Origin: an uncultured Bacteroidota bacterium
Lineage (GTDB): Bacteria > Bacteroidota > Ignavibacteria > UBA10030 > UBA6906
Length of the DNA: 64,000 nucleotides
Direction: 5' to 3'
Assembly: GCA_963700635.1 (NCBI GenBank)
Contig: CAVOYH010000004.1
Location: forward strand, 32,001 to 96,000
A program made the translations under genes and the position numbers. A model generated the notes under the pieces. The model was given only the letters and a program-made list of their open reading frames with translations. It had not been told where the DNA came from and made no database searches. Shown here piece by piece: positions 2,342-26,686 of the stretch. The number at the start of each line of letters is the position of its first letter. The stretch's first letter is position 1.

Positions 2342-2344
2342 AAA

Positions 2345-9167: not shown

Positions 9168-10952
9168 ATGATCGACTCCATAAAACAAGTTAATCTTCTT
9201 GATCTGGTGGTCATCATCACCTACCTTCTGCTCTTGACCGGCGTTGGAATTTACCTGACCCGGTTCAACAAGAGCGTGGATGATTTTTTTAAGGGTGGTG
9301 GAAAGATTCCCTGGTGGATTGCGGGACTCTCGACCTTTGTTGCGGGTTTTTCCGCATTTATGTTTGTGGCCGCCGCCGGGTATACATATAAGAACGGGCT
9401 TGGCGCAGTCGTGCTCTTTACCTCCGCGGTATGGGGATACGGTCTCGGATATTTGATCTATGCGGTGCGATGGCGCCGGGCCAGACTCTCCTCGCCCATG
9501 GAATTTCTGACGCGACGATTCTCCCAGGGAACAACGTATTACTACACACTGTTGTCCATTGTTCCGTCGATTATGGGTCTCGGGCTGGGGATCTATATCC
9601 TGTGTATTTTTATTGCAACAGCCCTCGGGATTATGTCGGTGACGGTGAATATCGGATTCATGATGCTCACCGGACTCGAGTTGTCCATGATCGTCACAGG
9701 GCTGGTTATGCTGGTGTATACAAGCGCCGGGGGACTCTGGGCGGTGGTGATCACGGATTCCCTCCAGTTCTTTATTATTCTCGTAATTTCACTTCTGATT
9801 TTCCCCCTCACCTTCATCGAACTCGGCGGGACCTGGAACATACTGGATGGTTTCCAGCGGCTGATCGCTGAGGCGCCGCCGGATTATATCAGCCTGGCCG
9901 ACGTGTTCACGCGTCCCCTGTTTTATCTCGCCTACCTGGTCAGCATCTTCATCGGCTACAATGCCGCCTGGCATATCGGCCAACGGTATTACAGCGTTCC
10001 TACGGAAGGTGATGCGCGCAAGATGGCCCTGCTCTGTGCGGGACTGAGTCTGGTGCTGCCGTTCCTGTGGATCGCACCGACCATGGGTGCACGGGTCCTC
10101 TTTCCTGATATCGCCTCACTCTGGCCACAACTGGCGGAACCGGCGGAGGCCTCATACGTGACCCTTGCCCTGACACTCCTGCCGAACGGATTGATCGGGC
10201 TGACACTCTCGGCGATTCTCGCAGCCACGATGACTTCTATTGACACCCAGCTGAACTACCTTGCGTCCATTCTGGTCCGCGATGTGTACGTCAAAATTCG
10301 TGAGGACTTTATGGGCGTGATTGCCGGGCAGAAGGAGCAGTTGACGGCCGGGCGCCTCACCGCTTTTACGCTGGGCATTCTTGCGATCATCACAGCCATC
10401 ATCGTTCAGAGGACCAAGGGAGTCTTTGATTTTGCACTGATGTACTATTCCTGGTTTGCGCCGTCGATGCTGACGCCGGTCATGCTGGGATTTGTGTACA
10501 AGAAAACACCATCCTGGTCTGCCATTGCTGCGGCCACGGCTGGTCTCGTGCTGGTGTTCGTCGTTAATGTGCTGGTGGACGTTGCTCCGTACCAGTACGA
10601 AGTGAACATCTTTGGCGGAGTGGGTGTGACCACGCTGGTCTTTTTTCTGTCCGGGTTGTGGAAGGAACGAAACCCTTCAATCCTGAAGAGCCAGGGCGCG
10701 TTCAGTGTGGATATGCAAACGCCCGCCGTTGATGATCATCTCCGGTGGTCCGGCAATGCACTGTCTTCGTACAGGATCGTCGGGTTTCTCACCGCCACGA
10801 TTGGCGTTGTGGTGATTGCCCTCGGGTTTGTGCCGACAACGATGTTCGTGCACGTGATCACCCTTGTCCTTGGTGCGGGCACGGCCTCGCTCGGGTGGTT
10901 GATGGTCTGGTATTTCCGGCGTCAGACGCGCCTTCTGAAAAAAGCGGAATAG
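9168..10952 (+). CDS. Sodium:solute symporter (SSS family)
   Basis: About 14 hydrophobic segments. Motifs 'DDFFKGGGKIPWW', 'YTSAGGLWAVVITDSLQ', 'LAATMTSID'. Confidence 0.92.
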   Translation: MIDSIKQVNLLDLVVIITYLLLLTGVGIYLTRFNKSVDDFFKGGGKIPWWIAGLSTFVAGFSAFMFVAAAGYTYKNGLGAVVLFTSAVWGYGLGYLIYAVRWRRARLSSPMEFLTRRFSQGTTYYYTLLSIVPSIMGLGLGIYILCIFIATALGIMSVTVNIGFMMLTGLELSMIVTGLVMLVYTSAGGLWAVVITDSLQFFIILVISLLIFPLTFIELGGTWNILDGFQRLIAEAPPDYISLADVFTRPLFYLAYLVSIFIGYNAAWHIGQRYYSVPTEGDARKMALLCAGLSLVLPFLWIAPTMGARVLFPDIASLWPQLAEPAEASYVTLALTLLPNGLIGLTLSAILAATMTSIDTQLNYLASILVRDVYVKIREDFMGVIAGQKEQLTAGRLTAFTLGILAIITAIIVQRTKGVFDFALMYYSWFAPSMLTPVMLGFVYKKTPSWSAIAAATAGLVLVFVVNVLVDVAPYQYEVNIFGGVGVTTLVFFLSGLWKERNPSILKSQGAFSVDMQTPAVDDHLRWSGNALSSYRIVGFLTATIGVVVIALGFVPTTMFVHVITLVLGAGTASLGWLMVWYFRRQTRLLKKAE

Positions 10953-10972
10953 CAAAGGAAGGAAACGAGGCA

Positions 10973-11896
10973 ATGCAGCGAATCATAAGGGTCAGTGCGG
11001 CACAGATGCCTACCGCGTTTGAGGGAAGATCGTTTGCGGTGAAACAGAAGAAAAACAGGGCAACGATTCTCGCAACGTTGCGTGTGGCAGGTGAACGGAA
11101 ATCCGATCTTGTGCTCTTCGGGGAATATGCAAACCTCCATCACCGTACCTGGTCGACCAACCTCAGGGAATATGTCCCGGATCCGATACCCGGGAGTTTT
11201 ACGAGGGCTGTCGGCGCTGCAGCCAGACGCTACCGCATGAATGTTGCCATGCCGATGTTTGGCCGGTACAAGGGGGTGCTCTCCAGCTATGTTGTCCTCT
11301 TTGATCGGTCCGGGGAGATTCTACACTGCTACCAGAAGGCTCACCCCACCGAGCCGGAACAGGATATGGGAATCCGGCCCGGAAATGACCTTCCTGTGTA
11401 CACGCTCGACTGTGCGCGCATCGGGATCATGACCTGCATGGACATCGAATACCCGGAAGTCGCCCAGGTGTTGATGGTGCGGGGGGCTGAACTCCTGCTG
11501 TTTCCCCACGTGCAGGCGTCATGGGGAGAGGTGGATTGGGAGATCCGATACCGGGCGCGCGCCATCGATACAGGACTCCCGGTAATTTCCGCGTGTTACG
11601 GGTATCCCGAAGGGGAGTGGCTTCCGGGGAAGATGACAGGCCGGACCAGCGTCGTGGGGCGGGACGGACTGATCCTCGCTGATCTCGCACGCCGGATCGA
11701 TACGCTGACATTCGATCTGGATCTTTCGCGAGGCCGGGTGACGCAATTCTTTTTTAACACGCCGTTTCCACGTACAGAGGCCGTCATTGCGTCCCGGCGT
11801 CCTGAATTGTATACCACTTTGGGGGAATCTGAGAGCAAGAACCGTATGCTTGAGCGCTTGCGCAAGCGTACAAAGAAAGGGGCTGCCAATGCCTGA
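10973..11896 (+). CDS. Carbon-nitrogen hydrolase (nitrilase superfamily)
   Basis: Glu-Lys-Cys triad in LFGEY, YQKAH and MTCMD. C-terminal RRPELY. ATG 10973 after GAGG. Confidence 0.88.
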   Translation: MQRIIRVSAAQMPTAFEGRSFAVKQKKNRATILATLRVAGERKSDLVLFGEYANLHHRTWSTNLREYVPDPIPGSFTRAVGAAARRYRMNVAMPMFGRYKGVLSSYVVLFDRSGEILHCYQKAHPTEPEQDMGIRPGNDLPVYTLDCARIGIMTCMDIEYPEVAQVLMVRGAELLLFPHVQASWGEVDWEIRYRARAIDTGLPVISACYGYPEGEWLPGKMTGRTSVVGRDGLILADLARRIDTLTFDLDLSRGRVTQFFFNTPFPRTEAVIASRRPELYTTLGESESKNRMLERLRKRTKKGAANA

Positions 11897-12683
11897 CACA
11901 ACACCCGTAGCGATCATTACCGGCGCGAGCCGCGGATTAGGCCGGGGCATCGCCCGCCGGCTTGCCGAGCAGGGACTCTCACTCGTCATTAACTATGCCG
12001 GAAACGCCGACGCCGCGGCGGAAACCGCTGAACTCTGCAAATCCAGACAATCACACCTGGACCAGCGGTTTATCACATTTCAAGCGGACATGGCTCTTCA
12101 GGAAGACCGGCAGAGGCTTGTACAGCAAACCCTGACCGCTCTCGGGCGTATTGATGTCCTCGTGAACAACGCCGGAATCGGCCCGCGTGTGCGTGCGGAT
12201 CTCACGGAAACGACGCCTGAGTCTTTTGCACATGTCCTCCAGGTTAACCTTGAAGGACCCTTCTTCCTATCCCAGGCGGTGGCGAACTACTGGCTGGAAC
12301 AACGACCGGATCCGATTCTCCCGCACGGCTTTACGGTGGTCAATGTTTCTTCCATATCGGCAAATACAGCATCTCTGAACAGAGGCGAATACTGCATTTC
12401 CAAGGCCGGACTGGCCATGGTCACCCAGTTGTGGGCGTTACGTCTGGCATCCTCACGGGTTCACGTCTACGAACTCCGACCCGGTATTATGGCCACTGAC
12501 ATGACTGCCAGCGCCAAGGACAAGTACGATAGACTGCTCGGAGAAGGCCTGGTGCCGCAAAACCGATGGGGAAGCCCCGACGACGTCGGAAAGGCTGTCG
12601 GTGCGCTGGTACGGGGCGATCTGGCCTACTCAACGGGTGAGGTGATCTACCTGGATGGCGGGATGCATATGAGGAAACTCTAG
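11889..12683 (+). CDS. SDR family oxidoreductase (FabG-like; probable sugar-acid reductase)
   Basis: TGASRGLG, NNAG and YCISK (YxxxK) motifs. Confidence 0.9.
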   Translation: MPDTTPVAIITGASRGLGRGIARRLAEQGLSLVINYAGNADAAAETAELCKSRQSHLDQRFITFQADMALQEDRQRLVQQTLTALGRIDVLVNNAGIGPRVRADLTETTPESFAHVLQVNLEGPFFLSQAVANYWLEQRPDPILPHGFTVVNVSSISANTASLNRGEYCISKAGLAMVTQLWALRLASSRVHVYELRPGIMATDMTASAKDKYDRLLGEGLVPQNRWGSPDDVGKAVGALVRGDLAYSTGEVIYLDGGMHMRKL

Positions 12684-12737
12684 GAACCATGAAGAACGGC
12701 AGGTGGAAAATCACTGCCTGAAAGGATTATCTGTACA

Positions 12738-14126
12738 ATGATACGGATTGAAGAGTCGATTACAGCGGAACACCTGCTGCCGCGCGTGACGCGAGTGTTT
12801 GACCTGTCCGCGAAAAAACTTACCCTGCTCCAGAACGCCTGGAATCCCCATCATGGCACACCCGTGTTCACGGAGAACGGGGTGTACACCTCGCGCGGAT
12901 GGACCGAATGGACACAGGGGTTCCAGTTCGGGTCAGCCATTCTGCAGTTCGATGCTACAGGAGAGCACGCGGCGCTGGAAACCGGAAGAAGGGCGACTGT
13001 GGATTGTATGGCTACCCACGTCAGCCATGTCGGAGTGCATGACCACGGTTTTAACAACGTGAGCACGTACGGCAATCTGCTCAGGCTGATGCACGAAGGA
13101 CGCATTCCGGACCAGGAGTGGGAACGCGCATACTACGAACTTGCCCTGAAAGTGAGCGGAGCCGTCCAGGCTGCGAGGTGGACTGATCTGGGCAACGGCG
13201 ACGGATACATCTATTCGTTCAACGGCCCGCATTCCCTGTTTGCCGATACTGTGCGTTCTCTCCGCGTGCTTGGTGTAGCACACCAACTCGGCCACGTGCT
13301 GATGGGCGAAAAAGACAGGAAAATCTCGCTCCTTGAACGTCTGATCGTCCATGCCTTTACAACGGCAAAATACAACGTCTACTTCGGCGAGGGCCGGGAC
13401 GCATACGATATCCGGGGTCGTGTTGCGCATGAATCGATCTTCAACCTGAACGATGGGTCGTATCGCTGTCCAAGTTCACAACAGGGGTACTCGCCGTTTT
13501 CGACCTGGACACGGGGGCTGGCATGGATTCTCTGCGGGTTTGCGGAACAGCTCGAGTACCTTTGTACCCTGTCAGACTCCGCTTTTCCGAAAGGCAGGAA
13601 GAAGGCCGAGGTGATGTCAACCTTCCTCAACACTGCCAGTGCAGTGGCCGATTTCTATATTGACCAGTCGCCGACCGACGGAATTCCGTACTGGGACACC
13701 GGGGCCCCCGGACTTGCCAGGATGGGGGACTACCTGCAGAAACCCGCCGATCCGCTGAATGACCACGAACCGGTGGACAGTTCCGCGGCGTTGATCGCTG
13801 CACAGGGCCTGCTCCGCCTGGGACTCTACTTGAAGGGGATCGGGAAAAAGGATAACGGGAGCCGGTACTTCCAGGCGGGACTCACAGTAGTAAAGCATGT
13901 TTTTGATGAGCCGTATCTCTCCCTCGGTGAAACCCATCAGGGGCTTATACTCCATTCGGTCTACCACCGCCCCAATGGGTGGGACTATGTTCCCGCGGGG
14001 GGGAAGATTCCTTGCGGCGAGTCGACAATGTGGGGTGACTACCACGCGCGGGAACTTGCCCTTATGGTGTTGCGGATGGCAAAAGGAGAACCGGTTCCGG
14101 CGTTCTTTCTCACCCCACGGCGGTGA
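12738..14126 (+). CDS. GH88-like unsaturated glucuronyl hydrolase
   Basis: Motifs 'WTEWTQGF', 'HDHGF', 'QGYSPFSTWTRGLAW', 'PYWD', 'DSSAALIAAQG', 'WGDY'. Confidence 0.82.
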   Translation: MIRIEESITAEHLLPRVTRVFDLSAKKLTLLQNAWNPHHGTPVFTENGVYTSRGWTEWTQGFQFGSAILQFDATGEHAALETGRRATVDCMATHVSHVGVHDHGFNNVSTYGNLLRLMHEGRIPDQEWERAYYELALKVSGAVQAARWTDLGNGDGYIYSFNGPHSLFADTVRSLRVLGVAHQLGHVLMGEKDRKISLLERLIVHAFTTAKYNVYFGEGRDAYDIRGRVAHESIFNLNDGSYRCPSSQQGYSPFSTWTRGLAWILCGFAEQLEYLCTLSDSAFPKGRKKAEVMSTFLNTASAVADFYIDQSPTDGIPYWDTGAPGLARMGDYLQKPADPLNDHEPVDSSAALIAAQGLLRLGLYLKGIGKKDNGSRYFQAGLTVVKHVFDEPYLSLGETHQGLILHSVYHRPNGWDYVPAGGKIPCGESTMWGDYHARELALMVLRMAKGEPVPAFFLTPRR

Positions 14127-15093
14127 AAAAGGCTTCCAGGTTTGCCAGCGGCACCTGGGCCGGGATGTCACAACCTGATGAAATGACGAAGTTTTTCCTG
14201 GATGACGTCTCTGCGAGCAGGGCCTTCGTCCGGGTACGTAGTTCATCGGCGGAGGCGCCGACAAAGATCTCTGATGGATCGAGATTCCCACAGAGAATGA
14301 TATCATCAGGCACCTGTTGCAGCGCGTTCACGAGATCCATGGGTTTCCCGAAATGGAGAATGCGCGCACCCGAATCAAGTGTTGCCTGGAGATGTCCGAT
14401 GCGTGCACCACAATTGTGCAAGATAATCTGAAATCCACCGTCCTCGACGGCCTCGATGATCCTTCGTACATAGGGGGATGAAAACTCCCTGACGGACGCA
14501 GGGGACATAAGGCCGGCAGTAGGCTCTGCGATAACCACACCGTGCGCACCCGCTTTTTTGAACTCTGCGGCATACCGCATCAGGTATGCCGTCGTCTTTT
14601 CGAGGAGTGTGTGTATCATTTCCGGTTCTCCTGCTGTTTCCACGAGGGACTCGCTGACGCCAAACAGCCTGCCGGCCAGTGAGAAGGGGCCGATCATCCC
14701 TCCCAGCACAATGGCATCGTCAACGGATGCAGCCAGTCTCTCAACGGTACCCAGGTACACGCGCGCACGGTTTGTCCCGATTGCGGGAACTGACAGGGCT
14801 CTGATCATTTCCGGATTGCTCACCAGCCGCCCTGTTACGGTCGGGACTTCCCAATCCGACATCAGGACCTCTGCGCCGAATTCTTCCGCCTCAACGCTCA
14901 AATCCATTGCCGACATCACAAAGGGCGTCTTGAACCTTCTGTGGAGTTCATGCTGGGCGGCGACCTGGCGTTCAACGTCGGTAACCATGGCCCGGACCGT
15001 TGTACCGGTCAACGGTGCGCCCGGGAATGTCAGCACAGGCATAGCCAGCCGCCCGGGAGATGAGAGAATCCGTTCAGAGAGAGAAACCATCAA
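14110..15093 (-). CDS. URO-D family methylcobamide methyltransferase (MtaA/CmuA, MT2-like)
   Basis: 'GPFSLAG', 'IAEP', Zn-ligand 'HNCG', 'GNLDP', 'SSGCD'. The 3' end overlaps the convergent GH88-like gene by 17 nt. Confidence 0.85.
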   Translation of the reverse strand: MMVSLSERILSSPGRLAMPVLTFPGAPLTGTTVRAMVTDVERQVAAQHELHRRFKTPFVMSAMDLSVEAEEFGAEVLMSDWEVPTVTGRLVSNPEMIRALSVPAIGTNRARVYLGTVERLAASVDDAIVLGGMIGPFSLAGRLFGVSESLVETAGEPEMIHTLLEKTTAYLMRYAAEFKKAGAHGVVIAEPTAGLMSPASVREFSSPYVRRIIEAVEDGGFQIILHNCGARIGHLQATLDSGARILHFGKPMDLVNALQQVPDDIILCGNLDPSEIFVGASADELRTRTKALLAETSSRKNFVISSGCDIPAQVPLANLEAFFTAVG

Positions 15094-15124
15094 CGATGCA
15101 TCCTTCGTGGTGATGACGAGATTG

Positions 15125-16648
15125 TTATTCGTGCGGGGTAAGTGGACCCGGGAAGATCATTTCTTCAACGTAGGTGTCCTGGAAGCCTTCGAGTCCACTG
15201 AGCGAGACGTGTTGTATACGCGCGGCGAGCCTGTCGAAGGTTTCCGGGGATGTAAAAAGAGCCATCTTGGCACCCAGCAGAGCCGTGTTGCCCGCAGGGT
15301 GGATCTGTGCGGAGTCGAATGGTAGAAGGCCGATACGCTGGGCGCTTGTTGTGTTGATATAGTTGCCGAAGGCCCCGGCCAGGAGTACCCGCCCCACCCC
15401 GTCATGGGTCGTTCCGAATTCCCGGAGCAAAAGCCGTATCCCGGCTCCTATGGCCCCCTTTGCAAGCTGTAACTCCCGGATATCGGTCTGGGAAATCTTC
15501 ACCGGCGGGCAGAGCATGATCGATTTTCCGCCATCAGTGAACCTCCCTCCGGTTTTGATGCGTCCGAGTGAAAGGGAGGCGGCGACTGCATCAACAAGGC
15601 CGCTTCCGCAGATTCCGCGAGGCGGAACATTGCCCAGGACCCGGCAGACAAGTTCCTCTCCTTCCACGTGTACGGCCGAAACCGCGCCGGTTGATGCCCG
15701 CATCCCCATGTAAATCCTCGCGCCTTCGAAGGCCGGTCCGGCCGCCGTGGATGCGCAGACCATCCGTTCGCTATTGCCCACAACGACCTCACCATTGGTG
15801 CCCAGGTCAACGAGGACCAGGACATCTTTGGAGTGATGCAGGCCGGTAGCGAATACGCCCGCAAGAATGTCGCTGCCCACGAATCCCCCGATGCCGGGCA
15901 GAAATCGGATTGTCGGAGTGCCCGGAGTGCTCCATCCCAGATCACGGGATGTAAATATTTTCTGTTCCAGGGTCTCCGGCTCAAAGGGGTAATGGGACAA
16001 CGGCGTGGTGTTGATATCACAGAAGAAGTGATGCATGACGGTATTTCCGACAAGGACGATGTCCTTGAGGGCGTGAACCTCTTCCGGTGTTGCGTCAAGG
16101 AGTTCACCGATCATCTTCCCGATCTGTTTCCGCAGTACGGTGACGAGCGTTGAGTGTCCGGTCGGATCGGCCGCATGGGAGACGCGGCTCATGATGTCAG
16201 CGCCAAACCGTGCCTGCGGATTGAGTCCGCTGCGCACAGCGAGCACTTCTCCGCGGCTGAGATCGAGCAGCTGGGCCACGATTGTTGTCGAGCCGACATC
16301 CACCGCGATGCCAAAACCCTCACGCGGCGTGAAAGAGAAGTCCGATGTATCGGCAAGAATTTGAGCTTCCCACTGAGCAAGCTCGAGGGTGAGGTCGCCG
16401 TCGGCACGACACTGGCACGAGAGACGCCACCCTGCGGCACATTCGTCGGGCGAGAGCATATGCTCCTGCACGGGTGACAGCGGGAGGGACCCTTCGAGCA
16501 CCCGTACGCGGCATCCTTTACATTTTCCGTTCCCACCGCAGGGAAACTCGACGCCGTAGGCGAAGAGGAGATCCTGCAGGGGGGTTCCCCGCGGGGTGTC
16601 AATATCCACGCCCATCGGGCGAAGGCGAATGCGGACCGTGCCACTCAT
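15125..16648 (-). CDS. ASKHA-domain reductive activator of corrinoid proteins (RACo/DUF4445) with N-terminal 2Fe-2S ferredoxin
   Basis: CGGNGKCKGC...LSCQC ferredoxin. Motifs DVGSTT, DLGTNGE, AGPAFEG, GICGSG, LAGAFG. Confidence 0.9.
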   Translation of the reverse strand: MSGTVRIRLRPMGVDIDTPRGTPLQDLLFAYGVEFPCGGNGKCKGCRVRVLEGSLPLSPVQEHMLSPDECAAGWRLSCQCRADGDLTLELAQWEAQILADTSDFSFTPREGFGIAVDVGSTTIVAQLLDLSRGEVLAVRSGLNPQARFGADIMSRVSHAADPTGHSTLVTVLRKQIGKMIGELLDATPEEVHALKDIVLVGNTVMHHFFCDINTTPLSHYPFEPETLEQKIFTSRDLGWSTPGTPTIRFLPGIGGFVGSDILAGVFATGLHHSKDVLVLVDLGTNGEVVVGNSERMVCASTAAGPAFEGARIYMGMRASTGAVSAVHVEGEELVCRVLGNVPPRGICGSGLVDAVAASLSLGRIKTGGRFTDGGKSIMLCPPVKISQTDIRELQLAKGAIGAGIRLLLREFGTTHDGVGRVLLAGAFGNYINTTSAQRIGLLPFDSAQIHPAGNTALLGAKMALFTSPETFDRLAARIQHVSLSGLEGFQDTYVEEMIFPGPLTPHE

Positions 16649-16650
16649 TG

Positions 16651-17397
16651 TTATCCGGGCTCCGCAGTAATGATACGATCGTCATGAGTCGGGACAACCC
16701 TGTGTCCGGGTGGCACGACAAGAAAGTCGCTTTCGTCCCACTCACCGCGAACGAGCCGTTCCAGCAGCGTCAGGTTTCCCTGGACGCGTTCGTAGGACCA
16801 GCCGTTTTCGCGAGCGCGGTCCTGCGCAGTGTTTTCGAACTGCGCATTAGGTTCTATGCCCATGGAGAGGAAGGTGATCTGGCGGTAATGTCTGGTCATG
16901 TCACAGAGTTGATCAAACAGAAACCGGGCGTTCTCTTCGCCGTATTTCTCCACGAGTTGCTCGTACGTGAGGTCCATGCCGTTTTTGTTCTGGATCGACA
17001 GCTGGCGGAGTTCCCCGGTGGGATCTCCCCCCCGTTCGATCCAGCCGGATGTCAGGAAATACGTGCCGGGATTATTCTGGAAGTAGTCCAGATACTTGTC
17101 CCTGCTCCCGAAGAACAAGGTCATACAATCATGGCCCCGGGGAATGACAACGGGCAGGGTTCGCGCACACAATCCTGTAATCCCATTGTTGCAGAGTGCG
17201 TATCCCAGGAGGATGGCATCATAACCGGGCGTGTCTGCAGCATCCACCGCGGCCTGCAGTCGTTCCACCATTCCTGCTGAACCGATATCGTGCAGCCCTT
17301 TGGGGAGGAAACAGTGGTCGACCTGATGCGGGGAATGCGCGATCAGGTGACACAACTCGCGGTAGAGGACTTCGCAGGATACCAGGTTAAATTTCAT
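16651..17397 (-). CDS. DUF1638 domain protein
   Basis: Start MKFNLVSCEVL. Motifs 'LPKGLH', 'LLGYALCNNG', 'HDCMTLFFGS', 'GTYFLTSGW'. Confidence 0.8.
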   Translation of the reverse strand: MKFNLVSCEVLYRELCHLIAHSPHQVDHCFLPKGLHDIGSAGMVERLQAAVDAADTPGYDAILLGYALCNNGITGLCARTLPVVIPRGHDCMTLFFGSRDKYLDYFQNNPGTYFLTSGWIERGGDPTGELRQLSIQNKNGMDLTYEQLVEKYGEENARFLFDQLCDMTRHYRQITFLSMGIEPNAQFENTAQDRARENGWSYERVQGNLTLLERLVRGEWDESDFLVVPPGHRVVPTHDDRIITAEPG

Positions 17398-17429
17398 GTG
17401 GTCAGACAGAATGGGTAAGAAGGGAAATG

Positions 17430-18323
17430 TCAGCGTATGGTATGGGACAAGGCCTCGACGAACATGGGCGAAGTCCCGCAACACCCGCCGATAAAGGCGA
17501 CGCCGGCATCGCGGAGCGCGAGGGCCTGTGTGGCAAACTCTTCAGGTGTCGTCCGGTAGGTTACCGTACCACCGACCATTTCAGGGAGTCCGGCATTCGG
17601 CTTGATCCACAGAGGGAGGTCCGTTGCAGCTCTGAGTCTTCTGGCGATGGGTATATATCCCTCCATACCCAATCCGCAATTCGCACCGACAACATCGACG
17701 CCGGCGGCGGCGAGCTCTTGTGCCACCTGTTCCGGCGTTGAACCCATCATGGTCCGGTCCTTATCTTTTCCCGAGTCAAAAACCATTGAGGCCACAACGG
17801 GGAGTCCGGTGGCGCGGGCGGCCTTGATGGCAAGCGTAGCTTCCTGAAGATCGGACATGGTTTCAATGACCAGCGCATCGGCGCCGGCCGCAGCGAGCGC
17901 GGTGGCCTGTTCTTCAAATGCTTGCAGAACATCGTTTTCCGTCACCTCTTCGGTCATCAACAATTTCCCCGTCGGTCCGATTGACGCAAAGACCGCTGCG
18001 CGAGAGCCGGCCGCGGCGCGGGAAATGCGTACGCCGATGGAATTGATTTCCGCAGTCTTGTCGGCCAGGCCAAAACCATCCAGCGCAATGCGGTTACTGC
18101 GGAACGTGTTCGTGAGGATGACGTTACTCCCGGCCTCGATATAAAATTGTCCGACACGCTTCACGTGCTCCGGATGCGTCAGATTCCAGCCGTCCGGGCA
18201 TTCGCCCGGAGGCAGACCGAGGGCCTGGAGTTGGGTTCCCCAGGCCCCGTCAGTGATAACTGGAGTTGAACGCAGTAAGCGTGTGAGGGTCGGATGCATA
18301 ACGTGCGCGTCTCCCCGGGACAT
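17430..18323 (-). CDS. Stand-alone homocysteine S-methyltransferase (MetH Hcy-binding domain)
   Basis: DGAWGT, TNTF, ETMSD, Zn ligands GANCG and GGCCG, KPNAGLP. Alternative start at 18299. Confidence 0.9.
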   Translation of the reverse strand: MSRGDAHVMHPTLTRLLRSTPVITDGAWGTQLQALGLPPGECPDGWNLTHPEHVKRVGQFYIEAGSNVILTNTFRSNRIALDGFGLADKTAEINSIGVRISRAAAGSRAAVFASIGPTGKLLMTEEVTENDVLQAFEEQATALAAAGADALVIETMSDLQEATLAIKAARATGLPVVASMVFDSGKDKDRTMMGSTPEQVAQELAAAGVDVVGANCGLGMEGYIPIARRLRAATDLPLWIKPNAGLPEMVGGTVTYRTTPEEFATQALALRDAGVAFIGGCCGTSPMFVEALSHTIR

Positions 18324-18326
18324 GAT

Positions 18327-18962
18327 TCAGGCAGCGACGAGTTTTCGGGCGAGTGCGACGGCCCCGTTGGCGTTGGTGCTGTATCCGTCTGCGCCGATCT
18401 CCTGCGCATACTTTTCCGTGACGGGTGCCCCACCGATCATGATTTTCACTTGGTTGCGCACGCCGGCGGCTTTGATCGCTTCCACGGTGGTTTTCATCGA
18501 GTTCATGGTAGTCGTCAGTAGGGCCGACATCGCCACGAGGGTGGCTTTTTTCTCGTTCAGGGCGGCGATGAACTTTTCGGGCGGAACATCAACACCAAGG
18601 TCGATGACCTCGAATCCTGCGCCCTCCAGCATGGCGGCAACAAGATTTTTCCCGATGTCGTGAAGGTCGCCCTTCACGGTGCCGATGACCACCCGGCCGG
18701 CCGGTTCCGCGCCTTTCGCGACGAGGAGGGGACGGATAAACTCGAGTGACGCCTTCATGGCGCGGGCAGAGATGAGGAGTTCCGGAACAAAGTATTCATT
18801 TGCTTCGTACCGGCGTCCGACTTCGTCCATGGCGGGGATCATGTGTTCCTGTACCATGGCCTGGGGGTCCGCACCTGCTGCGAGTGCTTGTTGCGTAATT
18901 TCCCTGGCTGCCTTAAAATTCCCCGTGAGGATTGCATCGTAGAGCTTTTTCAGATCTTCCAT
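18327..18962 (-). CDS. Corrinoid (B12-binding) methyltransferase protein
   Basis: Cap domain 'YFVPELLISARAM', DLHDIG (DxHxxG), SALLTTT, IGGAP, IGADGY. ATG at 18962 (MEDLKK). Confidence 0.93.
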   Translation of the reverse strand: MEDLKKLYDAILTGNFKAAREITQQALAAGADPQAMVQEHMIPAMDEVGRRYEANEYFVPELLISARAMKASLEFIRPLLVAKGAEPAGRVVIGTVKGDLHDIGKNLVAAMLEGAGFEVIDLGVDVPPEKFIAALNEKKATLVAMSALLTTTMNSMKTTVEAIKAAGVRNQVKIMIGGAPVTEKYAQEIGADGYSTNANGAVALARKLVAA

Positions 18963-18988
18963 GGCAGTAACTCTCCCGCGAATTGTGA

Positions 18989-20038
18989 TTACAATTGTCC
19001 GTGCTCGTGCACAGTCTCGTACATGGTCAGAATATTGACAGTTGGCGTGACGGGTTGAAGGTTGTGACACGGAGCGCAGATCCAGCGCGCCCCCGAAAAG
19101 AGACGGATATTGTCCAGAACTTCCGAACGAACCTCCTCGACACTGCCAAAGGGAAGCGTGTGCTGGTTATCCACTGCACCATGAAATATCACACGCTTGC
19201 CGAAATCACGCACCAGTCCTTCTCTCTCCATACCCGGACACCGCCACTGGATCGGATTAAGGATTTCTATGCCGGTCACATCCAGCAGGTCCGGAATAAT
19301 ACTCCGTGCGGCGCCGTCGGTGTGATAGAATACATGGATGCCGAAGCTGCGCGCAAGATCGGCCATTTTCTTCTGACGCGGGAGAATGAACCGGCGGATT
19401 TCCGGGACTCCGAAGAGGAGCGCCGTCTGTCCGCCCAGGTCTTCTGCGACATACGTGATGTCGATCCGCCCCTTCCCCAGCTCGAAGGTGCGCTGATTCA
19501 CAGTGTAGTAGTATTGAAAGATATGTTCAAGGGCTGTGTCGACGAACTCCTGATCGACCAGCAGGTCCATCATGGCCAGTTCCATTCCGCGCAACGCGCA
19601 GTACAGCAGGAATGGTTCATATTCTCCGGACCGCACAATACGGTGAGAGGGCGCCGCAGAAATCTCTCTGTGATACCGTTCAAAATCGTGATCCGCAGGC
19701 CGGGGCCAGGGATACGCGTTCAGTTCGTCAACCGTGGTCAGGTCGGCCAGGGGGTGGTTGGCAAATTCGTCGTATGATCCGGTTCCATAATCGATCGCCG
19801 TGCGCCGCAAACCCCAGATATCTGCCTGCTCATCTCCCGGAGGATGCTTCAGGGTCCGTTCGGGGTTAATATGGACAACGCCGTCGATATGAAGACGTGT
19901 ATACAGTGCTTCTTTATCTGCACAGCCAAGCTCTTTGAGGAGTCGCGCCGTGACTTCGTCTGTCGCCCAGTAATCTGTGGGAATTCTGTCGGGCTTTTCA
20001 CCGGCAAAGAGGGCAAGCCACCGTTCTCGAGGTGTCAT
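18989..20038 (-). CDS. URO-D family methyltransferase (candidate substrate:corrinoid MT1)
   Basis: MTPRER...KPDRIP N-terminus, 'LRGME', 'EDLG', 'HTDG', 'LNPIQ', 'APCHNLQ'. Confidence 0.85.
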   Translation of the reverse strand: MTPRERWLALFAGEKPDRIPTDYWATDEVTARLLKELGCADKEALYTRLHIDGVVHINPERTLKHPPGDEQADIWGLRRTAIDYGTGSYDEFANHPLADLTTVDELNAYPWPRPADHDFERYHREISAAPSHRIVRSGEYEPFLLYCALRGMELAMMDLLVDQEFVDTALEHIFQYYYTVNQRTFELGKGRIDITYVAEDLGGQTALLFGVPEIRRFILPRQKKMADLARSFGIHVFYHTDGAARSIIPDLLDVTGIEILNPIQWRCPGMEREGLVRDFGKRVIFHGAVDNQHTLPFGSVEEVRSEVLDNIRLFSGARWICAPCHNLQPVTPTVNILTMYETVHEHGQL

Positions 20039-20216: not shown

Positions 20217-22604
20217 ATGCGACTCGGAATCCTGCTGCTGCCGGTTACAATAATCCTGGTCCTGGGTACAGGATACGGGGGAGACGTGGAGGACCGCGGA
20301 TACCTGGCGAAACCCGCCCTTACCGCCGCCGGTGTGATGTGTACCAACAGCTTTGGCTCAGCGCTGTACGTCGTACGGAACGATACGCTTCACGAGCTCG
20401 CCGCGGGACCCGGGATTGGGCTGTACTATACCGTCTCCCCGGCAGGGGACCTTGTGGGATGCAAGGAAATAACCGAGTCCGGTCTGCAGTCTGCACTGCT
20501 CATCAATCTTCACAACGGACAACGACAACTGCTCACCGGACCGGAAGCACGCGTCGGACAGGTCAGCTTTGCCACCAACGGCAGGATAGCGTTTACCGTC
20601 GGTACGGACCTGATCGTTACGGACGGCGTAACGCAGGAACGGTACCCCCTCGGGACGTATGCCAATATCGCGCCGGTCTCGCCCGATGCACGATTCGCAG
20701 CGTTTAATGATCCGGACGACCAGCTCTGGCTCCTGGAACTGGCCACCCGGAATAAGCGCCGCATCACGGATGGAACCGTGGGATTTTTTTCACCGCTCTG
20801 GTCTCCGGACGGGAACCGTATCGTGTACTCTACGCTCCACGGTATGCTGTCCGTGTACGATCTTGGCACCGGACAAACGTATGAACTCGGTCGTGGTTCT
20901 CACCCGGCATGGACGCCGGACTCAAGGACAATTGTGTTTCACCGGACGAGCAGCGATCGGGACGAGGTTGTGGCATCGGACCTGTTCAGCATCGGATATG
21001 ATGGGTCAGGTGAGACACTTCTCACCGCGGGGATGGACGACTTTGCCATGGACCCCTCTGTTACACCGGATGGCAAGGCGGTGCTCTTCCACACGTTTAC
21101 TACGCGGGAGGTACGGTGGAAGGCCCTCGAGAATGATGCACCCGTTCAAAAATCTGCCGATGCCAGACGAATCTCCGGGACCGCGTTGACCATCCGGGCC
21201 AGAACGCCCTCCACGGTCCCGGAGTCCGTCTCCGGACTCGATATCCCGTATGTGCATCAGGTCTATGATACACCGGACTGGTTCAACGGACACTGGGCAT
21301 GCGCTCCCACGCAGGCCATGATGGTACTCGCGTATTATCATGTCCTTCCCCCCTGGAACATCACCTGTACCTGGCCGTCCCCTCACACGACGCCATGGGG
21401 GAACTATGTTGCTGAACAGTACCGGTTCCGGGGAACCGACTATGCCAGCGTCGCGCAAGATCCCAATGGAGTCAACGGCAGAGGGGGGTACGGCTTTATG
21501 TGGACCGGCTCATTCAGTCCGCGCAGTCGTATGGCTGACTACTACAGGAGTCATGGTCTTTCAGCGGTGCAGACGGAGGGCACGGCTTACAGTGCCGCGG
21601 CTGCGGACATCTCCGCAGGATTCCCCTTCAGTATGTGCGTGCTGCTGACGACCTCAGGCCATCTTGTGCTGGCACATGGTTTCGGAGCAGAACCCCACAC
21701 GCTGATGTTTCATGATCCGTACGGGAATAAGAATCAGGGATACATGAATGCCTCCGGGAAGAATGTATTGTATGACTGGCCGGGCTACAACAACGGTTAT
21801 CAAAATCTGAACGAGGTGGCGTGGTGCATCTCCACGCGATTCTCTCCGCCGCCAGTGGAAAACACGGTCGTGGATGATCTGCAATTCAGCAACGGTTTTT
21901 CTATGCAGACAGCCCCGCCGGCCTCCATGAAAATCTGGCGAGACCTGAACCGGGGCTATCAGGGGCATCTCTGGTATGCATACACTTCACTGGGACCTGT
22001 TGACACGTTTTTTGCGGAGTGGAGACCGGTACTCTCCGATGCCGGTGATTACGATGTACAGGCATTCATCGAACTCAGCAACGCGACCGATGCACGGTAC
22101 GAGGTCACCCATGCTGCCGGGAGAGATACGGTGTTCTTGAACCAGAAACTTTTTAGTGCGGAGTGGGTATCCCTCGGGGTGTTTCCGTTCACCATCGGAA
22201 ACAGCGGAGCTGTGCGGTTGAGTCATCTCTCGAGCATCGCGGGGCAGGAAATCGTCTTTGACGCGGTTCGATGGATCAAGGCGGCTTCCACATCCACTGT
22301 GTCAGAGAAAGCGGGAGCAGGGGAACCGGCATTCCGTCTGGAGCAGAACTACCCCAACCCCTTTAACCCATCCACCCGGCTCCACTTTTTTGTCCCCCGT
22401 GAAGCCCTGGTGCGGCTTGAGATTGTAAATGCGCTCGGGCAGAGTGTGGCGGTCTTACGGGATGGGATCATCGGACCCGGAGCGCATGTGCACGAGTGGT
22501 CCCCCGGCCGACTCTCCTCGGGAATCTACATCGCGCGACTCCGGCTAACGACCAGTGACGGGACCAGTCATCAGTCCGTCGTTAAAATGCTTCTGACGCG
22601 TTGA
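20217..22604 (+). CDS. Secreted multidomain protein: TolB-like propeller + C39-like cysteine peptidase + golvesin-like domain + T9SS CTD
   Basis: Signal peptide and WSPDG/WTPDS repeats. Cys-His-Asp in WACAPT, SGHLVL, HDPYG. Also 'FDAVRW' and 'LEQNYPNPFNP'. Confidence 0.72.
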   Translation: MRLGILLLPVTIILVLGTGYGGDVEDRGYLAKPALTAAGVMCTNSFGSALYVVRNDTLHELAAGPGIGLYYTVSPAGDLVGCKEITESGLQSALLINLHNGQRQLLTGPEARVGQVSFATNGRIAFTVGTDLIVTDGVTQERYPLGTYANIAPVSPDARFAAFNDPDDQLWLLELATRNKRRITDGTVGFFSPLWSPDGNRIVYSTLHGMLSVYDLGTGQTYELGRGSHPAWTPDSRTIVFHRTSSDRDEVVASDLFSIGYDGSGETLLTAGMDDFAMDPSVTPDGKAVLFHTFTTREVRWKALENDAPVQKSADARRISGTALTIRARTPSTVPESVSGLDIPYVHQVYDTPDWFNGHWACAPTQAMMVLAYYHVLPPWNITCTWPSPHTTPWGNYVAEQYRFRGTDYASVAQDPNGVNGRGGYGFMWTGSFSPRSRMADYYRSHGLSAVQTEGTAYSAAAADISAGFPFSMCVLLTTSGHLVLAHGFGAEPHTLMFHDPYGNKNQGYMNASGKNVLYDWPGYNNGYQNLNEVAWCISTRFSPPPVENTVVDDLQFSNGFSMQTAPPASMKIWRDLNRGYQGHLWYAYTSLGPVDTFFAEWRPVLSDAGDYDVQAFIELSNATDARYEVTHAAGRDTVFLNQKLFSAEWVSLGVFPFTIGNSGAVRLSHLSSIAGQEIVFDAVRWIKAASTSTVSEKAGAGEPAFRLEQNYPNPFNPSTRLHFFVPREALVRLEIVNALGQSVAVLRDGIIGPGAHVHEWSPGRLSSGIYIARLRLTTSDGTSHQSVVKMLLTR

Positions 22605-23500: not shown

Positions 23501-23515
23501 CCTCATTTTTCTGCA

Positions 23516-23580
23516 CCTCGTCGCGTCTTCACGCGGTTCGCCGCCCCCTCCGTTGTTTCCAGCCTGAAAAAGGGTACCAT
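23516..23580 (+). promoter_or_regulatory. Putative LytTR direct-repeat boxes plus -10 (TACCAT) upstream of sensor kinase
   Basis: TCGTCGC at 23518 and TCGCCGC at 23538 (20-nt period). TACCAT at 23575. Confidence 0.4.
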
Positions 23581-23631
23581 GCACCCAGAATGTGGCAATG
23601 AGCCGCATCGTGTTCTCTCTGAAGGAGTGGC

Positions 23632-26600: not shown

Positions 26601-26684
26601 GCCGCTGCCTTTGCACTCGAGAGTCCTCCGGATGGTGGCGTTAATGCCGTGATAACATTACCCCTTCACAGCAAGGTCGGCTGA
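23632..26684 (+). CDS. LytS-like sensor histidine kinase with periplasmic beta-propellers and Y_Y_Y domain (two frameshifts near 24300-24395)
   Basis: Reg_prop repeats (DGLP, QTPDGYMWFGT), 'YTNVPPGSYRF', a TM helix, 'QLQPHFLFNTLN', 'LQPLVENAIRHG', 'DNGAG', 'GIGL'. Pieces lie in three ORFs: 23632, 24341 and 24264. Confidence 0.88.
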
Positions 26685-26686
26685 TT

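Follow-up and report, generated by a model that had tools for sequence, protein, structure and literature searches.

Candidate corrinoid-dependent methyl-transfer hub with homocysteine as conserved acceptor in an FCB-group sediment bacterium

In the window, the whole 64,000-nucleotide stretch of DNA analysed here, positions 14110-20038 are filled exactly by six minus-strand open reading frames. With modest confidence, these are read as an operon for folate-bypassing, corrinoid-dependent methyl transfer in which homocysteine is the conserved acceptor and which serves as a hub for URO-D paralogues. A sequence-only reading had described six co-oriented, tightly packed genes of the families listed below, with neither a pterin-binding nor a SAM-reactivation domain. 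The ORF listing and Pfam searches bear out both points, with zero matches to Pterin_bind (PF00809) or Met_synt_B12 (PF02965) in all six cassette proteins.

18989..20038, minus strand: MT1, methyltransferase of the URO-D/MtaA fold, 349 aa (Pfam URO-D, 53.3 bits)
18327..18962, minus strand: corrinoid protein (CP), 211 aa, made up of a cap and a Rossmann B12 domain (Pfam B12-binding_2, 82.7 bits; B12-binding, 110.5 bits)
17430..18323, minus strand: stand-alone homocysteine S-methyltransferase (HMT), 289-297 aa (Pfam S-methyl_trans, 222.4 bits)
16651..17484, minus strand: DUF1638 protein (Pfam DUF1638, 131.9 bits)
15125..16648, minus strand: RACo/RamA-type ATP-dependent reductive activase, 507 aa, 2Fe-2S ferredoxin domain at the N-terminus (Pfam Fer2, 36 bits; Raco_middle, 158 bits; RACo_C_ter, 221 bits)
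14110..15093, minus strand: MtaA-like URO-D methyltransferase, 327 aa (Pfam URO-D, 186.8 bits)

The open frame of the CP extends over 18327-19070 (247 aa), and its start probably lies at 18962, which would match the 211-aa length of the orthologues; the DUF1638 product measures 248 aa when started at 17397. Taking the shorter starts, the intergenic gaps are 2-32 nt, and the six genes would form a single operon. The activase scores 297.7 bits against the NCBIfam AcsV model, which is under the model cut-off. The proposed FCB-group affiliation of the host, a sediment bacterium, is supported by the nearest related loci, which belong to Bacteroidota/Ignavibacteriota MAGs, and by the type IX secretion parts present within the window.

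The arrangement exceeds chance, since the same order recurs in a paralogous cassette and in other genomes. A second six-gene copy lies at C3:1868427-1874316 of the host genome (66-91% amino acid identity). The comparison of synteny that had been proposed as a check covered 80 loci of other species-level genomes, many of them truncated by contig ends, and recovered all six genes in conserved order in 15; MT1 and CP occur together in 27/80 and MT1, CP and HMT in 19/80 (at least 100 bits in each case). Reduced variants consist of CP-HMT-RACo (G110) or CP-HMT-DUF1638-RACo (G087), L021 has HMT and lacks the MtaA-like gene, and a Verrucomicrobia locus (L064) carries CP, about nine URO-D-like ORFs and then HMT. 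Judged from gene content, the conserved core of these variants is CP-HMT-(DUF1638)-RACo. The nearest longer relatives of HMT are fusions, CP-HMT (P0242) and HMT-DUF1638 (P0241, P0244), all devoid of a pterin domain; as single-member clusters in gene order, these three could be read-through artefacts. In Planctomycetota, MT1 orthologues adjoin a CP-MetF-pterin methyltransferase set in 4/80 loci, so that the MT1 methyl group can reach folate in other lineages.

Motifs and folds are consistent with the proposed roles. The Pfam URO-D match of MT1 covers only its C-terminal half, and the AF2 model (pLDDT 94.2) shows an MtaA/UroD fold, with MtaA (4ay7_A) as the top Foldseek match (E 3.5e-13, TM 0.68/0.70). 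The aligned columns His239-x-Asp241 ... Cys321-x-x-Cys324-His325 (H-T-D ... C-x-x-C-H) are invariant, and MT1 is regarded as a candidate methyl-donor:corrinoid methyltransferase. Species genomes contain 319 relatives. The CP carries D99-x-H101-x-x-G104 (DxHxxG) in invariant columns, and its NCBIfam scores (MtgC-type 220.9 and pyl_corrinoid 200.4 versus metH 141.3 bits) place it in the methylotroph class (MtgC/pyl-corrinoid). HMT aligns over 279 residues to the homocysteine domain of Thermotoga maritima MetH (1q7m), keeping DGAxGT, ETxSD, NC and GGCCGT. The MtaA-like protein retains LHxCG and GC against MtaA 4ay7, a sulfur-type His-x-Cys ... Cys zinc motif, and scores 120 bits with MtaA/CmuA and 131.7 bits with PRK06252, both below cut-off. 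As stated elsewhere, H-x-C...C marks S/Se-methyltransferases and O-type enzymes exchange Cys for carboxylates (Kountz and Balskus, PMC10418091). With its His-Cys-Cys site, the MtaA-like enzyme would therefore act on a sulfur or selenium atom.

Structure prediction assigns a possible partner to DUF1638, which is predicted to dock on the B12 site of CP. The modelled complex scored 0.63 against 0.01 for the best control, contact agreement among the three runs was 92% or better, and the partner had a pLDDT of at least 85. The score mark is reached by 116/157 solved complexes versus 2/215 mismatched pairs, counts that are only rough because author-built alignments were used. On the CP side, residues 148-154 and 179-182 fall within the predicted interface, as does the DxHxxG loop.

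The cassette had been termed a "split methionine synthase", a description that holds insofar as it contains no folate or SAM module and fails as an account of methionine synthesis in the host. The genome has two MetH loci bearing pterin and SAM-activation domains, this MetH being split into a [Hcy+pterin] gene and a [B12+activation] gene, together with two genes of core-MetE-like type and one of YitJ-like type. The cassette is thus neither the sole nor the main methionine synthase and, given the classical MetH, not the housekeeping one either. Furthermore, the MetH activation domain occurs in 19/19 HMT-bearing genomes of the family, so that prototrophy does not depend on the cassette, whose methionine output is putative.

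Another feature of the host is the disproportion between URO-D and core genes. Its genome contains 24 URO-D matches versus two RACo and two DUF1638 copies, one of each per cassette and none outside. Across 41 related family genomes, which are kin and hence provide no independent statistic, URO-D matches number 4-32 per genome (median 20) with an HMT orthologue (n = 19) and 1-16 (median 1) without (n = 22). Gene content suggests that the cassette most likely acts as a hub, supplying CP, activase and acceptor enzyme in common to some 20 unlinked URO-D-like putative methyltransferases, a role that the earlier term "self-contained" understates. Many of the host paralogues sit within sugar-catabolic loci, near ROK, PfkB and GHMP kinases, DeoC aldolase and lyxose/fucose-isomerase-like genes, as well as GH97, GxGYxYP, RhaM, MFS_2, SSF and AXE1. 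This sugar link is circumstantial, and the MT1 orthologues in 14 PVC loci, with mixed neighbours including many housekeeping genes, speak against it. The genes flanking the cassette are as follows.

806..9146, plus strand: four large proteins (511, 673, 783 and 938 aa) with no firm family, part of the duplicated block
9168-10952, plus strand: SSF symporter (Pfam)
10745-11896, plus strand: CN-hydrolase (Pfam)
11787-12683, plus strand: SDR (Pfam)
12738-14126, plus strand: GH88-like protein (GH88 at E 5e-4 only, below cut-off)
20217..22604, plus strand: type IX secretion-sorted protein, 795 aa (Pfam PD40, Peptidase_C39_2-like, Golvesin_C)

The four large proteins gave zero Pfam matches at 1e-5; weak hits (E 5e-4 to 1.3e-3) hint at heparinase II/III, an MGH1-like glycoside hydrolase and GH106, the last appearing in 26% of one Atlas cluster at 0.94; their C3 paralogues share 46-63% identity. 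The genes at 9168..14126 are conserved neighbours convergent with the cassette. Among them, the GH88-like gene was detected in 13/80 loci, and its Atlas clusters carry the automatic names GH88 or unsaturated glucuronyl hydrolase (0.99). The type IX-sorted protein, which matches Por_Secre_tail (NCBIfam), is encoded by a conserved neighbour divergent from the cassette and found upstream of MT1 in L009, L011, L013, L017, L032, L073 and L112.

The concept has close precedents in published work (Price et al., 2018; Mausz et al., 2025; Kountz and Balskus, 2023), and the cassette appears to be a variant of the split methionine synthases that recent studies have reported from marine bacteria. CdmBCA-type O-demethylase/dehalogenase systems resemble the cassette in combining an MT1 of the URO-D superfamily with a small corrinoid protein and an activating enzyme that depends on ATP, and Odm, Mtv and Mto are further acetogen or methanogen examples of MT1/CP/MT2/AE demethylases. 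In such systems, a pterin-binding MT2 methylates THF/H4MPT, from which methyl groups flow into the Wood-Ljungdahl pathway or methanogenesis, whereas the acceptor enzyme of the cassette is a homocysteine methyltransferase and acetyl-CoA synthase (CdhC) had no match in the host genome. Methionine synthesis in Phaeobacter is reported to require stand-alone HMT, CP, RamA-like and DUF1638 genes (Price et al., 2018, PMC5764234). The three-part split MetH of P. inhibens shares with the cassette the stand-alone HMT, the stand-alone cap-plus-B12 CP, the lack of a SAM activation domain, a DUF1638 gene beside the CP gene and a ferredoxin-DUF4445 (RamA/RACo-like) activase. It is an essential methionine synthase with a pterin-binding donor module, whereas the cassette is a single operon with two URO-D-fold methyltransferases, no linked pterin module and a coexisting MetH. 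In Ruegeria pomeroyi, one CP is reported to join a substrate demethylase to the homocysteine methyltransferase MtgE and so to methionine synthesis; RamA and DUF1638 are co-induced, and a single core is proposed to be supplied by several MT1 paralogues (MtgBCDE; Mausz et al., 2025, PMC12478193). Those MT1s are described as MttB-family (PF06253) enzymes acting on glycine betaine, with transfer via the bidirectional pterin protein MtgD and MetF2. The cassette differs in its URO-D-fold MT1s, its FCB-group host, whose genome has no MTTB-family match, and the lack of an MtgD-like gene in most carriers. A methionine link has also been proposed for type 1 mlp clusters (Kountz and Balskus, 2023 preprint, PMC10418091). 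Those clusters are characterised by two or three Mlps, no homocysteine methyltransferase or DUF1638, a mostly Firmicutes distribution and ties to selenium or methyl-sulfur metabolism, while the cassette includes both an MT1 of O-type and an explicit HMT. Core-MetE/Mes enzymes likewise convert homocysteine to methionine, drawing the methyl group from a methyl-corrinoid instead of a methyl-folate; they are described as MetE-type (PF01717) barrels (Deobald, 2020; Price, 2021), and the cassette acceptor enzyme has a MetH-type PF02574 domain.

Three other explanations were weighed against a homocysteine-directed hub. The classical MT1/CP/activase/MT2 layout would make the operon a demethylase in which methyl groups pass from MT1 through CP to the MtaA-like enzyme and onto a small thiol sink (sulfide, methanethiol or another), with HMT as a side branch. 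Physiologically, anaerobes such as Holophaga foetida are known for sulfide-dependent O-demethylation with methanethiol and DMS as products, the His-Cys-Cys site resembles that of methylcobamide:thiol methyltransferases, and most carriers have no detected folate sink. In addition, the Ignavibacteriae locus L022 (MT1-CP-RACo-MtaA-like, without HMT or DUF1638) fits the MtaA-like protein as acceptor enzyme, but stand-alone-sized HMT matches occur at other sites in that genome. The direction of MtaA-type enzymes is not readable from sequence, L021, G110 and G087 hold HMT without the MtaA-like gene, and the conserved core is CP-HMT-RACo, which leaves this explanation improbable. HMT might instead work alone, as a cofactor-independent BHMT/MmuM-like enzyme with a sulfonium or ammonium compound as donor (S-methylmethionine, DMSP or betaine), beside an unrelated, merely co-located corrinoid demethylase. 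In vitro, the Phaeobacter homologue Bmt does make methionine with DMSP or betaine as donor and needs neither THF nor cobalamin, and the HMT/MTHFR bifunctional (272.3 bits) and betaine-homocysteine methyltransferase (220.5 bits) NCBIfam models, both below cut-off, outscore metH (155.3 bits). This is nevertheless considered very unlikely, as the HMT gene lies between those of CP and DUF1638 in each of the 15 full cassettes, adjoins CP in reduced variants and occurs in CP-HMT and HMT-DUF1638 fusions, and the same Phaeobacter gene is reported to be genetically part of a split B12-dependent synthase (PMC5764234).

The remaining explanation concerns the donor. CP, HMT, DUF1638 and RACo could constitute a Phaeobacter-type split MetH fed by CH3-THF, with the two URO-D genes in an accessory role. 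A separately encoded pterin methyltransferase acting as the real donor was the finding named in advance as counting against the sequence-only reading, and the host does encode a MeTr-like stand-alone one at C4:926055-926927, adjoining MetV/MetF (NCBIfam PRK07535, 99.7 bits, below cut-off), but that locus has its own corrinoid protein. The stand-alone pterin methyltransferase or the split MetH, notably its [Hcy+pterin] half, could methylate the cassette CP in trans. The pterin module of Phaeobacter is reported to be unlinked to the CP, DUF1638 and HMT genes (Price et al., 2018, PMC5764234), and methionine synthesis in Ruegeria to need MtgD (Mausz et al., 2025, PMC12478193). Among five lone-MT1 PVC genomes, weak pterin matches lie in stand-alone-sized frames in G128 and G132 (291 and 326 aa), adjoining HMT in G132, with additional pterin matches of ambiguous type in G129 and G131. 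However, the C4 enzyme has orthologues in only 6/41 family genomes (6/19 HMT-bearing ones), and a stand-alone pterin methyltransferase is absent from 5/5 examined relatives with the cassette (92-100% complete), whose only pterin matches are a FolP-like and a MetH-type one. Moreover, a second folate-dependent synthase would be redundant because all carriers have a complete MetH. A folate donor is judged improbable.

Under the preferred hub model, the activase would spend ATP and use its 2Fe-2S domain to reduce CP from Co(II) to Co(I), as its family membership suggests, and DUF1638 may bind the B12 face of CP and help loading or reactivation, a role that the in silico prediction and Phaeobacter genetics point to. 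MT1, as a zinc-type enzyme (His-x-Asp...Cys-His), would transfer a methyl group from an oxygen-linked donor to give CH3-Co(III), and HMT would pass it to homocysteine, yielding methionine, a step proposed on the basis of synteny, the fusions, the precedent in roseobacters and the conserved homocysteine and zinc motifs. For the MtaA-like enzyme, two roles are conceivable: it may demethylate methyl-thio compounds as an additional donor enzyme, or methylate a thiol as an additional acceptor branch. What is new here is the co-occurrence of the cassette with many URO-D matches per genome and the predicted docking of DUF1638 on the CP B12 site. As many URO-D paralogues lie among sugar-catabolic genes, methyl salvage is proposed, in which methyl groups stripped from methylated substrates would enter the methionine/SAM pool through the cassette hub.

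The cassette is real and conserved. Its span in the window, 14110–20038, is filled exactly by six minus-strand open reading frames (ORF listing), which Pfam and NCBIfam identify, listed in the direction of transcription, as follows.

Genes of the cassette (window positions)
18989–20038, minus strand: MT1, a URO-D-fold methyltransferase; Pfam URO-D 53.3 bits, C-terminal half only
18327–19070 (shorter start 18962), minus strand: corrinoid protein (CP); cap and B12-binding domains
17430–18323 (shorter start ~18299), minus strand: stand-alone homocysteine S-methyltransferase (HMT); PF02574 222.4 bits
16651–17484 (shorter start 17397), minus strand: DUF1638 protein; Pfam DUF1638
15125–16648, minus strand: ATP-dependent activase (RACo); Fer2/Raco_middle/RACo_C_ter
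14110–15093, minus strand: MtaA-like protein; URO-D 186.8 bits

The lengths of paralogues and orthologues indicate the shorter starts for CP, HMT and the DUF1638 protein, and the intergenic gaps are 2–32 nt when these are taken. For CP, the best NCBIfam models were MtgC-type and pyl_corrinoid, scoring above metH. The sequence-only reading had described six co-oriented, tightly spaced genes of these families, encoding neither a pterin-binding nor a SAM-reactivation domain. The gene arrangement is borne out by the ORFs, Pfam and NCBIfam, and the domain content by Pfam, with no match to Pterin_bind (PF00809) or Met_synt_B12 (PF02965) in the six proteins. No riboswitch was found, as no Rfam family reached its gathering score anywhere in the window, and a scan for promoter-like sites (6 against 2.8 expected) and terminator-like sites (8 against 5.5 expected) was uninformative.

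At E ≤ 0.001, 4029 homologues of MT1 were found, the best 120 of which are all at least 65% identical, and a scan of species genomes returned 319 relatives. Among the best 80 of these 319, the Bacteroidota/Ignavibacteriota MAGs show 64–85% identity, and the others (Planctomycetota, Verrucomicrobiota, Lentisphaerae and one Anaerolineales MAG) 52–68%. All ORFs of the 80 loci were scored by phmmer against the window proteins at a threshold of 100 bits; the resulting co-occurrence counts are lower bounds, many of the loci being short contigs. MT1 and CP occur together in 27/80 loci and are joined by HMT in 19/80. The six-gene set is kept in 15/80 loci, all of them Bacteroidota/Ignavibacteriota, and it stands a second time in the source genome. 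The same-genus genome G075 carries the full cassette with flanks as in the window. Reduced variants (CP-HMT-RACo in G110, CP-HMT-DUF1638-RACo in G087, HMT-MtaA-like in G119) retain the cassette core. One further locus, L021, lacks the MtaA-like gene, and another, L022, reads MT1-CP-RACo-MtaA-like without HMT or DUF1638, with two stand-alone-sized PF02574 matches elsewhere in the same genome. Around the lone MT1 genes of PVC (Planctomycetota/Verrucomicrobiota-side) loci, ORF clustering within 7 kb revealed no conserved neighbours beyond overlapping-frame artefacts. A pterin methyltransferase is found in 4/80 loci, all Planctomycetota. In three Planctomycetota MAGs (L079, L083, L086; ~4.4–11.1 kb), a row CP-MetF-pterin methyltransferase-URO-D-like-MT1 was observed; there the donor enzyme thus has a folate module, not HMT, as its acceptor partner. 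In a Verrucomicrobiia MAG (L064, ~3.7–19.5 kb), one strand carries CP, a row of about nine URO-D-like ORFs, among them the MT1 orthologue, and after these an HMT relative (363 bits).

The second cassette of the source genome lies on contig C3 (C3:1868427–1874316; the window is C4:32001–96000), with the same gene order and 66–91% amino-acid identity per gene. The duplicated block is longer, comprising 17 collinear genes of 46–91% identity that begin ~1.3 kb ahead of the window and run to 22604, a stretch collinear with C3:1853037–1878010. Further doubled stretches were noted (C4:13000–24500 against C3:1836500–1847500, and contig C6 against C3:1.69–1.80 Mb); the MetH locus and the core-MetE-like gene are each doubled, on C6 and C3, and another paralogous sugar-catabolic cluster lies ~27 kb upstream of both cassette copies (L104, L093). 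With marker contamination at 6.7%, these doubled regions may stem from an old segmental duplication of large size or from a relative binned together with the genome. The same-genus genomes G025 and G075 hold only one cassette of this type each.

The active sites suggest how the individual enzymes work. HMT aligns over 279 residues with the homocysteine domain of Thermotoga maritima MetH (1q7m) and keeps the DGAxGT, ETxSD, NC and GGCCGT motifs, whose roles we take to be those of the MetH literature, the NC and GGCCGT residues presumably being the zinc ligands. The MtaA-like protein (327 aa) places LHNCG and SSGCD opposite LHICG and APGCG of MtaA (4ay7), and so has a His-x-Cys ... Cys zinc site on a URO-D fold, as in the MtaA/MtbA methylcobamide:CoM methyltransferases. 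It stays below the NCBIfam cut-offs (PRK06252 131.7 against 244, mtaA_cmuA 120 against 235.4, MtaA_Meth 91.4 against 400) and is the only His-Cys-Cys gene of this kind in the cassette. In MT1, Y-H239-T-D241-G and C321-A-P-C324-H325 are invariant across 30 sequences of 54–82% identity. By sequence, MT1 had no match in the PDB as a single query, and as a profile only one at a chance-level E of 0.48. Its AF2 model (pLDDT 94.2) is nearest to MtaA (Foldseek E 3.5e-13, TM 0.68/0.70), with UroD next. When 26 real URO-D-like paralogues from the source genome are aligned with MAFFT, one short fragment row being left out, HTD of MT1 stands opposite HNC and CH opposite GC, with the third ligand placed to within ±1 position. 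According to Kountz & Balskus 2023 (PMC10418091), His-Cys-Cys marks the S/Se-methyltransferases of the superfamily, and O-methyltransferases carry carboxylates in place of Cys. From the zinc-site motifs, this rule, the MT1 model and the paralogue alignment, we infer that MT1, as a donor enzyme, is of the oxygen type and the MtaA-like enzyme of the sulfur type.

The DUF1638 protein is modelled as two alpha/beta lobes (AF2 pLDDT 77.6), for which Foldseek returned no match at E ≤ 0.001. The best VIA-align Z values, 9.0 (LacI core) and 7.8 (Asp racemases), lie in a range common for the tool, and no function was drawn from the fold; a CbiK match at E 9e-3 was likewise not relied on. In a complex prediction with CP, from alignments of 26 (CP) and 30 (DUF1638) rows, the pair reached a median score of 0.63 against 0.01 for the best control, passing a mark that 116/157 solved complexes and 2/215 mismatched pairs pass, counts that are a rough guide here, with our own alignments in use. 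At least 92% of contacts agreed between runs, and partner pLDDT was at least 85. Predicted contacts on CP involve the DxHxxG loop (98, 100–103, 106–107), 148–154, 179–182 and the cap (14–17 and 58–67), and those on DUF1638 include the invariant H89/D90. The pass probably does not stem from a known complex already learnt by the predictor, because two fold searches gave no solved DUF1638-like structure. The prediction supports binding of DUF1638 to the corrinoid protein at its B12 face, which, if true, would give DUF1638 a testable role; Price et al. 2018 (PMC5764234) make no specific proposal for its function. Among longer relatives of HMT, the closest are HMT-DUF1638 fusions (protein clusters P0241, P0244) and a CP-HMT fusion (P0242), all without a pterin domain; they are single-member clusters in gene order and may be read-through artefacts.

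Whether the cassette could draw on a folate module elsewhere was assessed in the whole source genome (4.2 Mb, 6 contigs, 97% complete, 6.7% contamination). Pterin_bind matches occur at four places, all outside the cassette: in a FolP-like gene, in a stand-alone MeTr-like gene and at two MetH loci. At each MetH locus one gene carries homocysteine and pterin domains and another cap, B12 and SAM-activation domains; the two loci are 75–80% identical and the only ones to match PF02965. On C6 the copy is unbroken (606 aa); in the C3 copy (C3:1688848–1690567; L003/L005/L008) Pterin_bind extends over two frames (profile 1–197 and 196–244), hinting at a frameshift or at an indel in the assembly. PF02574 is found elsewhere in a YitJ-like and an MmuM-like gene, and RACo and DUF1638 are confined to the two cassettes. 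Three further genes bear on methionine and methyl transfer.

Further methyltransferase genes of the source genome
C4:926055–926927: stand-alone MeTr-like pterin methyltransferase; Pfam Pterin_bind
C6:24704–25681: core-MetE-like gene, single-barrel Meth_synt_2 (PF01717), ~360 aa
C3:1802542–1803510: core-MetE-like gene, single-barrel Meth_synt_2 (PF01717), ~360 aa

The two core-MetE-like genes are candidates for corrinoid-dependent, folate-independent Mes-type methionine synthases. The stand-alone pterin gene lies in a cluster (L006, C4:923925–928195) with a URO-D-like protein without the His/Cys motif, MetV (DUF5981), MetF and a corrinoid protein of its own. No activase was found in this locus, and it probably borrows RACo from the cassettes, because the only RACo genes of the genome are there. 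A pterin methyltransferase with an adjoining URO-D match recurs in G037, G057, G120 and G127. A pterin methyltransferase encoded elsewhere, as the true methyl donor to the cassette CP, would have overturned the proposed split methionine synthase; a candidate is indeed present, but it has its own corrinoid protein, and it may serve that one or the cassette CP. The source genome also holds, in this cluster, a separate folate-linked demethylase locus.

Across 41 genomes of the same family, the MetH activation domain is present in 37, RACo in 20, the HMT orthologue in 19, the MT1 orthologue in 15 and the stand-alone pterin methyltransferase in 6. All six of the last fall within the 19 HMT-bearing genomes; the other 13/19 gave no orthologue with the source-genome query. 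Five cassette-bearing relatives (92–100% complete) each have only two Pterin_bind matches, FolP-like and MetH-type, and an extra pterin domain in 0/5; a dedicated folate methyltransferase is therefore probably not needed by the cassette as a rule. In the wider order, DUF1638 occurs in 9/101 genomes. All five PVC genomes with a lone MT1 encode a ~300-aa HMT relative (39–62% identity) and RACo. Weak Pterin_bind matches in stand-alone-sized frames were seen in G128 and G132, and further pterin matches, of uncertain type, in G129 and G131. G128, a complete Planctomycetota chromosome holding locus L063, shows only two Pterin_bind matches, FolP-like and weak stand-alone (48 bits), none of MetH type, together with a stand-alone HMT relative and RACo; it may rely on a split synthase. 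In the source genome the cassette itself lacks a folate module, yet the gene inventory is well supplied for folate-dependent methionine synthesis, and all 19 HMT-bearing family genomes carry the MetH activation domain. Of the 'split methionine synthase', which was to pass methyl groups from an environmental donor to homocysteine, the folate-bypassing route stands as probable, but the cell does not have its methionine synthase in this cassette, which is an accessory system.

Known systems share parts of this design. Classical MetH has the PF02574 homocysteine domain in common with the cassette, whose proteins lack its pterin and SAM-reactivation domains. The cassette also resembles the split MetH and MtgCDE systems of Price et al. 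2018 and Mausz et al. 2025: separate HMT, cap-B12 protein, DUF1638 and RamA/RACo-like activase are all present here and adjoin each other (Pfam). Their stand-alone pterin module (MtgD/PGA1_c16040 type) has one candidate in the source genome, the C4:926055–926927 gene with its own corrinoid protein. Phaeobacter fitness data in the former source show stand-alone HMT, CP, pterin protein, RamA-like protein and DUF1638 to be required for methionine synthesis (Price et al., 2018; PMC5764234). In Ruegeria, the same CP also serves MttB-type glycine betaine demethylation, and several MT1 paralogues are proposed to feed one core (Mausz et al., 2025; PMC12478193). The MttB-family (PF06253) substrate methyltransferase of MtgCDE-type systems has 0 matches in the 97% complete source genome, and a pyrrolysine or MttB route was rejected; acetogenesis was also rejected, with no CdhC match in this genome. 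Phaeobacter HMT (Bmt) is active alone in vitro with DMSP or betaine (Narvaez-Barragan et al., 2025). Acetogen O-demethylases likewise combine a URO-D-superfamily MT1, CP and ATP-dependent activase, and differ in the pterin-binding MT2 that passes the methyl group to THF, which the cassette lacks. Core-MetE/Mes synthases, which take methyl groups from corrinoids, are PF01717 barrels, whereas the cassette HMT is PF02574. Kountz & Balskus 2023 (PMC10418091) describe MtaA-like/CP/Ram clusters without a folate methyltransferase and propose methyl-sulfur or methyl-selenium salvage towards methionine. In literature lying largely outside subscription journals, no description was found of URO-D MT1 with CP, HMT, DUF1638 and RACo, nor of a corrinoid route for methylated sugars.

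Altogether, the cassette probably bypasses folate in bringing methyl groups from O-methyl and perhaps S-methyl donors to homocysteine. Methyl groups would pass to CP and from there to homocysteine, RACo would reactivate the corrinoid protein, and DUF1638 would act as a CP partner. The cassette is also likely a hub. URO-D matches number 24 in the source genome, 4–32 (median 20) in the 19 HMT-bearing family genomes and 1–16 (median 1) in the 22 without HMT, a pattern among kin genomes and not a test; the single match in 17/22 of the latter is presumably HemE. Unlinked paralogues in the source genome, near which no corrinoid protein or activase was found, adjoin ROK, PfkB and GHMP kinases, DeoC aldolase, lyxose-/fucose-isomerase-like genes, GH97, GxGYxYP, RhaM, MFS_2 and SSF transporters, acetyl-xylan esterase and beta-helix proteins. 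A PycTM (Pycsar effector-like) ORF also lies beside two paralogues (L096, C3:1282859–1283344), and a HipA-type toxin gene pair near another (L101, C3:1461525–1462807).

The cassette flanks hint faintly at a sugar or glycan link. They include an SDR, a CN-hydrolase, an SSF symporter and large proteins whose leads to heparinase II/III, MGH1-like and GH106 families are weak. A convergent GH88-like neighbour, found in 13/80 loci, matches the Pfam family at E 5e-4, which is below cut-off, and falls in Atlas clusters that carry the automatic name GH88 at 0.99. The MT1 orthologues of PVC genomes have mixed neighbours, often housekeeping genes (Pfam scan, 14 loci), which speaks against MT1 itself acting on a sugar, and an enzyme conserved as highly as MT1 might just as well use a small, universal donor. 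Just past the divergent neighbour, the window holds two LytTR response regulators and a Reg_prop/Y_Y_Y histidine kinase (22730–27460), and a similar hybrid kinase lies close to the pterin methyltransferase locus at C4:926 kb; the glycan loci may be under the control of such proteins. Farther on (37375–39826), an intact MacB_PCD+FtsX permease gene (412 aa) precedes a second copy in two ORFs (MacB_PCD 257 aa, FtsX 188 aa), a possible frameshift.

A joint reading, tentative and on balance rather doubtful, would make the cassette the core of an anaerobic, B12-dependent removal of methyl ethers from polysaccharide-derived sugars and uronic acids. Each of 15–30 zinc-type URO-D enzymes per genome would act on one methylated sugar (4-O-methyl-glucuronate is a conjectural example), all loading one CP, with the methyl group passed to methionine or a thiol and DUF1638 as CP chaperone. 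If true, this would be an oxygen-free counterpart of P450 sugar demethylases, widespread in Ignavibacteriota, Bacteroidota, Planctomycetota and Verrucomicrobiota. Should the reading of the cassette hold, corrinoid methyl transfer would be run by common sediment and soil polysaccharide degraders outside acetogens and methanogens, and a function would be found for the large expansions of the 'uroporphyrinogen decarboxylase family' that stand unannotated in these genomes. Environmental methyl groups would enter methionine and SAM directly, an extra B12-dependent sink in anoxic carbon and sulfur cycling.
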